Source: a virus
IMG/VR virus record: IMGVR_UViG_3300042433_000146
Location: 1-64,000 of that record
Length of the DNA stretch: 64,000 bases
Reading direction: 5' to 3' (one strand)
Shown: piece by piece, positions 7,249-18,221 of the stretch
How positions within the stretch are numbered: position 1 is the stretch's first letter
Layout: each line of letters opens with the position of its first letter
The notes under the pieces: model-generated
The model's database searches: none
Seen by the model: the letters and a program-made list of their open reading frames with translations, nothing else
What the model was told of the DNA's origin: nothing
Made by a program: the position numbers and the translations under genes

Positions 7249-7827
7249 TTAGTTCTCCAAGCTCAACCGGGCCAGCTTCTTGCGAAGATTGATTCGTACT
7301 TCCGCGTCCACCGGCGTACCGTTCCCCACGGCGGCGACCACCAGCGCATAGAGCATTTCCGTTTCGACGGCGTTGAGAGTCAGCGTCACGGGCGGCGCGG
7401 CCTTCGCTTCGGCGTACCGTACCGCGTCAAGGAAGTGAGCCGTCGTCTGGTTCTTCTGCATTTCAGCGTACAGCCCGGCATGCTTCCGGTAGGTTTCCAC
7501 CGTGCAAACACCCTTCATCGGCGGCTGAAGAGCCGGATCGCCGATGGCCTTCCAGCCGACCGACTCACACGCGAAGTAGAGCACCCGCAAACCATCTGTC
7601 AGCATCAGCACATCACCGACGCTCATGGAGCGGTTCTTGTAGTCCGCCGGATGGTCCATGTTGAACTTCTCGAACAGCTTCTCACACGCGGCCTTCGCAT
7701 CGGCGGCGTCGATCTCACCGGTGTATGCCTTCTCAAGCAAGGCACCGGGGCGGTACCCATCAAAGTTGATGTAGGCCCGCGTCGGGTCGAACGTCACGTT
7801 CACAAAAAACTCATAGCTGAAAGTCAT
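7249..7827 (-). CDS. YodL-like domain protein
   Basis: LFEKFNMDHPADYKNRSMSVGDVL...YFACESVGW. Confidence 0.7.
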   Translation of the reverse strand: MTFSYEFFVNVTFDPTRAYINFDGYRPGALLEKAYTGEIDAADAKAACEKLFEKFNMDHPADYKNRSMSVGDVLMLTDGLRVLYFACESVGWKAIGDPALQPPMKGVCTVETYRKHAGLYAEMQKNQTTAHFLDAVRYAEAKAAPPVTLTLNAVETEMLYALVVAAVGNGTPVDAEVRINLRKKLARLSLEN

Positions 7828-13532: not shown

Positions 13533-13630
13533 CCAGCACAGCGCTGAAGGACTCGAACCTTCATGCCCGCCCGCGCTTTGAACGTCAGAAGGCGGCGACT
13601 TTCCTGAGATTAGTCGAAGCGCTGTGCTGG
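13533..13630 (-). ncRNA. tRNA-like RNA with 19-nt anticodon loop and 13-bp acceptor stem
   Basis: D stem GACT/AGTC, stem CCGCC/GGCGG, T arm GAAGG-TTCGAGT-CCTTC, no CCA. Confidence 0.65.
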
Positions 13631-17556: not shown

Positions 17557-17630
17557 TGGCTCCGGGTCAGGGATTCGAACCCCGATAGGAGGCTTCAAAG
17601 ACCTCCGTCCTACCTTTAGACGAACCCGGA
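17557..17630 (-). tRNA. trnQ: tRNA-Gln(UUG), canonical
   Basis: U1-A72, G73, loop CTTTGAA, CCA. Confidence 0.95.
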
Positions 17631-17635
17631 ATGAA

Positions 17636-17721
17636 TGGTCAGGTACGGGAGTCGAACCCGCATTGTCGCCTTGGATTGTGCGCGCCGTTGCGACTTCTTA
17701 CCGATTAGAAGAACCCGACCA
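17636..17721 (-). ncRNA. tRNA-like RNA with enlarged anticodon loop
   Basis: 9-bp TGGTCGGGT/ACCTGACCA stem, D stem CTTC/GAAG, T arm GCGGG-TTCGACT-CCCGT, ~20-nt loop in the anticodon arm. Confidence 0.6.
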
Positions 17722-17727
17722 CAAACT

Positions 17728-17815
17728 TGGCTGGCGCGGGTGGAATCGAACCACCGATGTCACGTGGACACTAGTTTCAGAGACTAGCGGCTTTACCAAC
17801 GTCGCCTACACGCCA
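17728..17815 (-). tRNA. tRNA with Gln anticodon CUG and long variable arm (88 nt)
   Basis: CTAGT-CTCTGAA-ACTAG; V arm TGTC-CACGT-GACA; U1-A72, G73, CCA. Confidence 0.85.
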
Positions 17816-17820
17816 ATATA

Positions 17821-18033
17821 CTAACCTTCGAACTCAGCGGGCCGTCCTTGGACGGCCCACTTTTCATGCTTGGCCGCATGCTGGTGGGTTTGCCCGAACG
17901 CGATGAGCGAACCGGGGCATAGATCACAGCCGACATACGGGAAATGTGGTGGGGCATCCCATCCAGCACGGAAGGCTTCTTCCGCGTCGCTGAATTGTTT
18001 CTCGAAGCCACAGCACTGACATTTCAGAGTCAT
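17821..18033 (-). CDS. small Zn-binding hypothetical protein
   Basis: CQCCG...CDLCP, between tRNAs. Confidence 0.6.
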   Translation of the reverse strand: MTLKCQCCGFEKQFSDAEEAFRAGWDAPPHFPYVGCDLCPGSLIAFGQTHQHAAKHEKWAVQGRPAEFEG

Positions 18034-18053
18034 AGTACCACTCTATCACTGAT

Positions 18054-18127
18054 TGGCTCCCGATCATGGATTCGAACCACGATTAAGTGAGTCAGAGTCA
18101 CCCGTCCTACCGTTAGACGAATCGGGA
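18054..18127 (-). tRNA. trnQ: tRNA-Gln(CUG), canonical
   Basis: U1-A72, G73, loop CTCTGAC, CCA. Confidence 0.95.
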
Positions 18128-18131
18128 ATGT

Positions 18132-18221
18132 TGGCTGCGGCGGAAGGAATCGAACCTTCGATGCTCACATGGAGCGTCTGTTTCAAAGACAGGTGGCTTT
18201 ACCAGCGTCGCCTACACCGCA
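18132..18221 (-). tRNA. tRNA with Gln anticodon UUG and long variable arm (90 nt)
   Basis: CTGT-CTTTGAA-ACAG; V arm GCTC-CATGT-GAGC; U1-A72, G73, CCA. Confidence 0.85.

Follow-up and report, generated by a model that had tools for sequence, protein, structure and literature searches.

Analysis of the first 64 kb of IMG/VR virus record IMGVR_UViG_3300042433_000146 (hereafter the window; the full record is 184.6 kb and ~86% complete) showed two transfer RNA (tRNA) genes that combine a glutamine anticodon with a long variable arm, a tRNA-Gln(CUG) and a tRNA-Gln(UUG), lying next to a pair of ordinary tRNA-Gln genes (Table 1). In textbooks and in a review of tRNA identity (PMC9976931), the long variable arm is reserved for the Ser, Leu, Tyr, and Sec tRNAs. 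The phage is large and T4-like, with a match to the T4-type Gp23. Its full record holds 43 tRNA genes as called by ARAGORN, plus a permuted transfer-messenger RNA (tmRNA), and all of the tRNA genes in the window are on the minus strand. The initial annotation, made from the sequence alone, had described the two long-armed genes as 7/5 cloverleaves. ARAGORN, the Rfam tRNA model (E about 1e-9 for both genes), and direct reading of the minus strand found both, with exactly the boundaries given there.

Each gene has a 7-bp acceptor stem with U1-A72 and G2-C71, U8 and A9, G10, a 3-bp D stem (GGC/GCC) closing the loop GACG(T/C)TGGTAAA, a 5-bp T stem with a normal T loop, G73, and an encoded CCA. The D arm gives both genes a G13.A22 core of the class II type. 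The third acceptor pair is G3-C70 in the CUG gene and C3-G70 in the UUG gene. The anticodon loops are 7 nucleotides (nt) long and carry U33 and A37 (CU-CUG-AA and CU-UUG-AA, respectively). The extra arm of the CUG gene reads TGTC-CACGT-GACA followed by an unpaired TC (alternatively, GTC/GAC followed by AUC), and that of the UUG gene reads GCTC-CATGT-GAGC followed by AUC. With variable regions of 15 and 17 nt, each forming a 4-bp stem and a 5-nt loop, the genes lie outside class I, in which this loop has 4 to 5 nt, and within class II, in which a variable region of at least 10 nt forms a stem-loop and the D stem has 3 bp. Every compensatory difference between the two genes that the initial annotation had listed for the extra arm and the T stem is present.

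The anticodon of the second gene needed further attention. ARAGORN assigned it to Phe(GAA), a call that slides the anticodon stem by 2 nt and needs a nonstandard 3-nt spacer between the D stem and the anticodon stem, and that was rejected. Infernal alignment to RF00005 and the family alignment described below both read the loop as CUUUGAA, which leaves a single C27.A43 mismatch in the first pair of the anticodon stem; therefore, the anticodon is UUG. This is an example of how standard finders mis-assign long-armed tRNAs.

The normal Gln(UUG) and Gln(CUG) genes that had been reported alongside the long-armed pair were also confirmed. In the ordinary Gln(UUG) gene, the D arm is of the Glu type (GUCU/GGAC) and the variable loop has 4 nt. 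In transcription order, the first tandem consists of Glu(CUC), 7 nt, class II Gln(UUG), 4 nt, and canonical Gln(CUG), and the second consists of class II Gln(CUG), 7 nt, an odd tRNA-like element, 6 nt, and canonical Gln(UUG), the spacers in this tightly packed tRNA operon being 4 to 7 nt. Since each sub-cluster contains one tRNA of each design, with opposite anticodons, each covers both Gln codons.

Table 1. Features discussed in the text. Positions are those of the window unless marked as record positions.
Feature	Position	Strand	Remarks
Class-II-shaped tRNA-Gln(CUG), 88 nt	17728..17815	-	ARAGORN; Rfam tRNA, 47.8 bits; chassis model R1, 102.5 bits
Class-II-shaped tRNA-Gln(UUG), 90 nt	18132..18221	-	Rfam tRNA, 45.9 bits; chassis model R1, 99.1 bits
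Class-I tRNA-Gln(UUG)	17557..17630	-	ARAGORN; Rfam, 57.1 bits; U1-A72, G73
Class-I tRNA-Gln(CUG)	18054..18127	-	ARAGORN; Rfam, 55.8 bits; U1-A72, G73
tRNA-like element	17637-17720	-	Between class II Gln(CUG) and canonical Gln(UUG)
tRNA-shaped RNA	13538-13624	-	19-nt anticodon loop according to the initial annotation; Rfam tRNA, 36 bits; uncalled by ARAGORN
Cys-rich open reading frame (ORF) P0001, 70 aa	17821..18033	-	Between the two Gln sub-clusters
RNA ligase-domain ORF, 371 aa	24653-25768	+	PF09414, E 1.8e-32; ~4 kb from the tRNA array
Permuted (two-piece type) tmRNA	record ~71.6-71.9 kb (L383:623-864)	-	RF04321, 98 bits; ARAGORN tag ANSNVLAMAA
Long-armed Arg(ACG), 88 nt	record 156541-156628 (L384, outside the window)	+	Scaffold unlike the Gln chassis
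Long-armed Asn(GUU), 90 nt	record 157124-157213 (L384, outside the window)	+	Scaffold unlike the Gln chassis
Long-armed Arg(CCG), 86 nt	record 161811-161896 (L384, outside the window)	+	Scaffold unlike the Gln chassis

Stem covariation in the chassis family

Relatives of this tRNA body, which we call the chassis, were sought by scanning IMG/VR, the JGI metagenomes, and the GTDB genomes for the D-arm word, a slightly degenerate form of which was used later. The scan found tRNAs only in phage-like contigs, and no tRNA was among the first 120 matches from contigs of bacterial genomes. A pattern of the form TGGTAAAGCC...T-loop returned only an unrelated tRNA family and tmRNA ends. The relatives found with the D-arm word were Asn(GUU) tRNAs in a complete 161-kb phage (L001; 89 nt) and in contigs L127 and L205 (89 and 87 nt, respectively), where they lie inside 20-tRNA arrays that each also contain a canonical Asn tRNA. 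The degenerate word added a Gln(UUG) tRNA in L468 and another in L587/L628, L628 (with L587) being a complete 242-kb phage. Altogether, the chassis has seven distinct members from five phage lineages, and their anticodons are those of Gln or Asn only. A covariance model of the chassis gave its members ~100 bits, compared to at most 51 bits for all other tRNAs in three phage genomes.

Several trends were apparent in the alignment of the seven members. First, 97.9% of the scored cells in the acceptor, D, anticodon, and T stems were paired, compared to 40 to 51% when the register was slid as a control. Second, 11 of the 20 pairs changed on both sides, and none of 500 shuffles reached the observed values. 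The fold is therefore under selection. The initial annotation had proposed a search for homologues with stem covariation as a check, and these phage contigs supplied them. Third, the acceptor and T-stem cells were 100% paired, giving a clean 7/5 architecture by which the 8/4 or 9/3 folding of allo-tRNAs is ruled out. Acceptor pairs 2 to 6 all covaried and pair 7-66 varied on one side only; U1-A72, C32, U33, and U35 never varied, and the D arm was near-invariant. Finally, compensatory changes preserve the stem of the extra arm, with two of its three scored pairs covarying in a five-member alignment. The arm loops differ among the members (CACGU, CAUGU, GCAA, UCAC, UUGC, and UUAACU; 4 to 6 nt). 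The idea that the extra arm copies the cognate anticodon loop was dropped, as the arm loops never spell the Gln or Asn loop. Both genes in the window are thus real tRNA genes with a fold under selection, and a chance match is excluded.

Long-armed tRNAs in other phages

A wider class was recovered by two pattern scans of IMG/VR that looked for a Gln anticodon loop and then a T loop at class II distance. There were 32 distinct long-armed tRNAs with a Gln anticodon, 31 of them with U1 and 26 with U1-A72, and their discriminator base (N73) was mixed (A in 12, G in 11, and U in 8). In an 84-kb phage with 26 tRNA hits (G012), both of the Gln tRNAs are long-armed, and no canonical Gln tRNA was found among the 26 hits. 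The D arm of these Gln tRNAs is almost identical to that of the phage's own tRNA-Tyr(GUA), whereas the acceptor end is U1.G72/G73 compared to G1-C72/A73 in the tRNA-Tyr. These similarities point to a clear Tyr-to-Gln origin in G012, independent of the chassis described above. When the chassis model R1 was run on five bacterial genomes, the best-scoring tRNA was a tRNA-Tyr in three of them, and the best cultured-phage match of the Asn gene in L127 was a mycobacteriophage tRNA-Tyr. In view of the G012 D arm and these two sets of Tyr matches, conversion of tRNA-Tyr-like genes seems to be a repeated event, with Asn readers and Gln readers arising more than once.

Long arms also occur with other class I anticodons. 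Outside the window, the same phage encodes long-armed Arg and Asn tRNAs on other scaffolds (Table 1), the Asn(GUU) tRNA in addition to a canonical Asn(GUU). Elsewhere, we found long-armed Thr(UGU) and Lys(CUU) in the phage G001, Lys(UUU) and Thr(UGU) in G014, Ile(UAU) in G002, and Trp(CCA) in L205. In the tRNA regions of G001 that were examined, the long-armed Asn, Lys, and Thr tRNAs were the only ones seen for those amino acids.

Some of these tRNAs have features of their own. G002 is a close relative of the phage studied here (terminase 96% identical), and its 92-nt Ile(UAU) tRNA (L370:1411-1502, minus strand) has an arm hairpin, GCGC/GCGC, whose loop CUGAUUA copies the anticodon loop of Ile(GAU). 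In the same phage, an 89-nt long-armed tRNA with a Trp-type end (A1-U72/G73), left unassigned by ARAGORN, has an odd anticodon loop, CCAAAAA, without U33 (L370:4082-4170, minus strand). The converse oddity was also seen, namely, tRNAs with Leu anticodons (UAA, UAG, and CAA) and A73 but a short variable loop of the class I type (L368:7431-7507 and 7519-7596 in G001; L631:663-740 and 746-822 in G012).

Amino acid identity of the long-armed Gln tRNAs

We consider it probable, with moderate confidence, that both genes encode working phage tRNAs that read CAG and CAA as glutamine on a class II, Tyr-like chassis. They carry the features of a bacterial tRNA-Gln, namely, a YUG anticodon within a 7-nt loop that has U33 and a purine at position 37, the weak first pair U1-A72, and a matching G73; bacterial tRNA-Gln and tRNA-Asn normally end in U1-A72 and G73. 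Of the E. coli cognate set (G73, G2-C71, G3-C70, and G10), both genes have all but G3-C70, which is confined to the CUG gene. In Escherichia coli, Gln identity lies in pairs 1-72, 3-70, and 10-25, the discriminator, U35, and G36, and U1-A72 is recognized by GluRS2 as well as by the amidotransferases that act on Gln and Asn tRNAs (PMC9976931). N73 follows the canonical copy of the same phage wherever such a copy adjoins a chassis member. This was the case for Gln both here (G73 in both designs) and in L468 (U73 in both), and for Asn in L127 and L205 (G73 in both designs of each). The long-armed tRNAs with other class I anticodons likewise obey their own acceptor rule, with A1-U72/G73 for Trp, A73 for Lys and Ile, and U73 for Thr and Arg.

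The charging would have to be done by the host. None of three synthetase families searched for in the phage record (GlnRS/GluRS, class IIa, and the Asp/Asn/Lys type) is encoded there, so host enzymes must do it. The phage has no near relative among cultured phages, and DNA searches of cultured phages for near and distant matches to the array or the tRNA returned nothing. Its large terminase shares ~53% identity with the terminases of myoviruses from Pelagibacter, marine cyanobacteria, and Methylophilales, and the hosts of these nearest cultured relatives are SAR11, marine cyanobacteria, and Methylophilales. The permuted tmRNA hints at an alphaproteobacterial, cyanobacterial, or betaproteobacterial host. 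The canonical Gln gene gave no BLAST hits in five bacterial genomes that were searched to type host Gln tRNAs. In the mechanism that we propose, the host would charge the long-armed tRNAs through the acceptor end and the anticodon, using either GlnRS or a nondiscriminating GluRS followed by the amidotransferase GatCAB, which also reads U1-A72. The extra arm would point away from class I synthetases and be tolerated. The chassis itself probably arose by giving a phage tRNA-Tyr a new anticodon and a new acceptor end, a change from GUA to GUU being a single step.

Some observations weigh against glutamine charging. The exact chassis was found in only seven distinct members, and the likely host range and the permuted tmRNA hint at a host without GlnRS. 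G73 together with a long arm also belongs to serine identity. A further point is the C3-G70 pair of the UUG gene, together with the C.A mismatch in its anticodon stem. Moreover, some GluRS enzymes demand a Glu-type D arm and a 4-nt variable loop (PMC9976931), and the canonical Gln copies have both, whereas the class II copies have neither. The class II copies are therefore possibly poor substrates for the indirect route. They may be charged by another route, through a GluRS2-like enzyme or GlnRS, or only poorly, and different charging routes could be a reason for keeping two designs.

The candidate reasons for keeping the arm are escape from host defenses that cut or sense tRNAs, a second charging route that would stand beside the Glu-type canonical copies, and a harmless historical hairpin. 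The initial annotation had suggested nuclease-resistant Gln tRNAs. The Gln tRNA part of this proposal is the best-supported of its readings, and the resistance part is a guess, made plausible by analogy with phage tRNA variants that escape anticodon nucleases (PMC10264068; PMC11555353), and the RNA ligase gene is only ~4 kb from the array. However, the escapes described there are anticodon-loop changes, and the anticodon loops of the long-armed tRNAs match the canonical ones.

The third candidate can be taken further, in that the genes would be ordinary Gln decoders and the arm a functionless relic of a tRNA-Tyr-like gene, paired only to spare the folding. The arm loop sequence is unconserved across the chassis, the arm geometry varies between sub-groups, and the independent Tyr-to-Gln origin in G012 and the short class-I-shaped Leu tRNAs, which suggest loose constraints on the arm, are in keeping with this. 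However, unrelated phages repeatedly carry long-armed tRNAs for Gln, Asn, Lys, Thr, Arg, Trp, and Ile, and the sampled hits in bacterial genomes contained no such chassis. The near-invariance of the D arm while the stems drift also points to selection on the core design, and a relic is unlikely on this evidence. Conversely, the chassis might be an adaptive design for the two amide amino acids that gives Asn and Gln tRNAs one common partner and hides them from tRNA-targeting defenses. The invariant D arm, U1-A72, and the Tyr-type arm would then be read by a GatCAB-type transamidosome or by another phage or host factor, and the canonical and long-armed twins would be two deliberately different Gln-tRNA routes. 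We regard such a design as quite unlikely.

The initial annotation had also proposed programmed mistranslation by Ser-charged tRNAs that read Gln codons. More broadly, SerRS, TyrRS, or LeuRS would recognize the long arm and charge the tRNAs, and Ser, Tyr, or Leu would be inserted at some CAG and CAA codons. The long arm, the class II core with its 3-bp D stem and G13.A22, G73, and G2-C71 are all consistent with this; SerRS recognizes its tRNAs chiefly by the arm and takes no account of the anticodon (PMC9976931; PMC7609411), and the Tyr-like chassis retains U35, a TyrRS determinant. However, five lines of evidence argue otherwise. First, bacterial tRNA-Ser conserves G1-C72 and G2-C71 (PMC9976931), and pair 1-72 is U-A in both genes and in all seven chassis members; the real phage Ser(UGA) tRNAs in the same scan had G1-C72 in 15 of 20 cases. 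An amber tRNA-Ser, with its class II body, was moved to Gln identity by changes at pairs 1-72 and 3-70 (PMC9976931). A long arm therefore does not keep GlnRS from accepting a tRNA, and pair 1-72 contributes to Ser identity. Second, the arm has the wrong geometry. In our pattern scans, real Ser(UGA) arms mostly had 1 unpaired nt, a stem of 4 to 7 bp, and 1 unpaired nt, compared to 0 to 1 nt, 3 to 4 bp, and 2 to 3 nt in the Gln/Asn chassis. The T stem is preceded by 2 unpaired nt in Leu tRNAs and by 3 or more in Tyr tRNAs, so that the arm is Tyr/Leu-like and unlike that of Ser. Third, the chassis relatives in L468 and L628 carry U73, and G73 is an antideterminant for LeuRS and TyrRS, both of which require A73 (PMC9976931). 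G73 itself, described in the initial annotation as typical of tRNA-Ser, is present in both genes but is equally a Gln and Asn discriminator. Fourth, of the columns conserved as Gln in an alignment of 79 terminase sequences, 7 of 9 are Gln in this phage; of those conserved as Ser, 12 of 13 are Ser, and none of the 13 is a CAR codon (R, A or G). Finally, the only Gln tRNAs found in G012 are long-armed. Mistranslation is thus very unlikely, and Ser-charged readers of Gln codons were not supported.

Equally doubtful are the decoys of the initial annotation and other roles outside translation, whether as regulatory RNAs or as sponges for a tRNA nuclease, sensor, or modification enzyme of the host: although a canonical copy with an identical anticodon loop beside each gene makes the decoding capacity redundant, the array holds tRNA-like elements with oversized loops (17637-17720 and 13538-13624), and a phage RNA ligase would fit a conflict over tRNA cleavage, the genes retain the full translation feature set (the 7-nt loop, U33, A37, the T loop, the encoded CCA, and the identity nucleotides), U1-A72 stays unvaried among acceptor pairs while pairs 2 to 6 covary, as expected of a charged tRNA, and long-armed tRNAs are the only ones found for Gln in G012 and for Asn, Lys, and Thr in the examined regions of G001.

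Genomic setting and comparison with known systems

The array contains other unusual elements. The tRNA-like element of the second tandem combines an acceptor stem of 7 bp with a D arm of the Glu/Gln type and a normal T arm, but ~20 nt replace the anticodon loop and no CCA is encoded; in Rfam, it has only a sub-threshold match to tRNA-Sec (26 bits). The Cys-rich ORF P0001 belongs to no Pfam family. Its relatives in the phage contig L012 also lie between Gln tRNA genes, both of which are ordinary there, and P0001 is therefore not tied to the extra arm. A promoter and terminator scan of the tRNA array returned nothing above chance. Elsewhere in the record, 158179-158301 (plus strand) and 64677-64775 (minus strand) are Rfam tRNA hits of 123 and 99 nt that were uncalled by ARAGORN and possibly represent tRNAs that contain insertions or introns. 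Phage G001 (complete, 161 kb) has an amber-suppressor-type tRNA(CUA) at L368:1286-1362 and, at L368:6091-6876, an ORF of 261 aa for an R2K-clade ATP-grasp protein (PF14243, E 6.5e-24) that terminates within the first bases of its class II Asn tRNA.

A long-armed body with Gln or Asn anticodons and matching acceptor marks recurs in unrelated large phages, and no description of such Gln or Asn tRNAs from phages turned up in the literature searched. This case contributes a chassis shared strictly by the two amide amino acids, the concordance of the discriminator within each phage, the test of arm geometry against Ser identity, and the Tyr-to-Gln origin in another phage. If the tRNAs are charged with Gln, then tRNA body class and amino acid identity are separable in nature, glutamine charging tolerates a class II body, and phages give tRNA-Tyr-like genes new ends and new anticodons to make new isoacceptors. 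In that case, the genes would also be natural scaffolds for orthogonal tRNA engineering and a lead on how phage tRNAs avoid tRNA-targeting immunity.

Other tRNAs are known in which a long arm accompanies an anticodon foreign to Ser, Leu, and Tyr. The nev-tRNAs of nematodes are such molecules and misdecode through their variable arm. The allo-tRNAs of bacteria (PMC5389517; PMC7609411) resemble the phage genes in the same combination but have an 8/4 or 9/3 architecture and Ser-type identity, whereas the phage genes have a 7/5 architecture, U1-A72, and a Tyr-type arm. The amber suppressor tRNA-Ser switched to Gln (PMC9976931) likewise joins a class II body to a Gln-like acceptor end; however, it is a laboratory mutant that reads a stop codon, whereas the phage genes are natural, conserved, and read CAG and CAA. 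The phage tRNA variants that escape anticodon nucleases (PMC10264068; PMC11555353) are also structure-altered duplicates of host-type tRNAs in large arrays, and the phage studied here encodes an RNA ligase near its array. The published variants have changes in the anticodon loop or stem, whereas here the D arm and the variable arm differ and the loops are canonical; neither PMC10264068 nor PMC13056530 mentions the variable arm or loop.

Two further comparisons are informative. Like the class II tRNA-Tyr(GUA) of bacteria and phages, the long-armed tRNAs combine a 3-bp D stem with a D loop that ends in AAA, U35, and a short arm of 3 to 4 bp with ~3 unpaired nt before the T stem. They differ from it in having U1-A72/G73 rather than the G1-C72/A73 of Tyr, a YUG or GUU anticodon, and a D loop that is one nt longer, with the G18G19 pair shifted. 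Like the canonical class I tRNA-Gln of the same array, they have the loops CU-YUG-A-A/C, U1-A72, G73, G10, and an encoded CCA and lie in the same operon. They are unlike it in having an extra arm of 15 to 17 nt in place of the 4-nt variable loop, and a 3-bp D stem with G13.A22 and a 12-nt loop in place of the Glu-type GUCU/GGAC arm.

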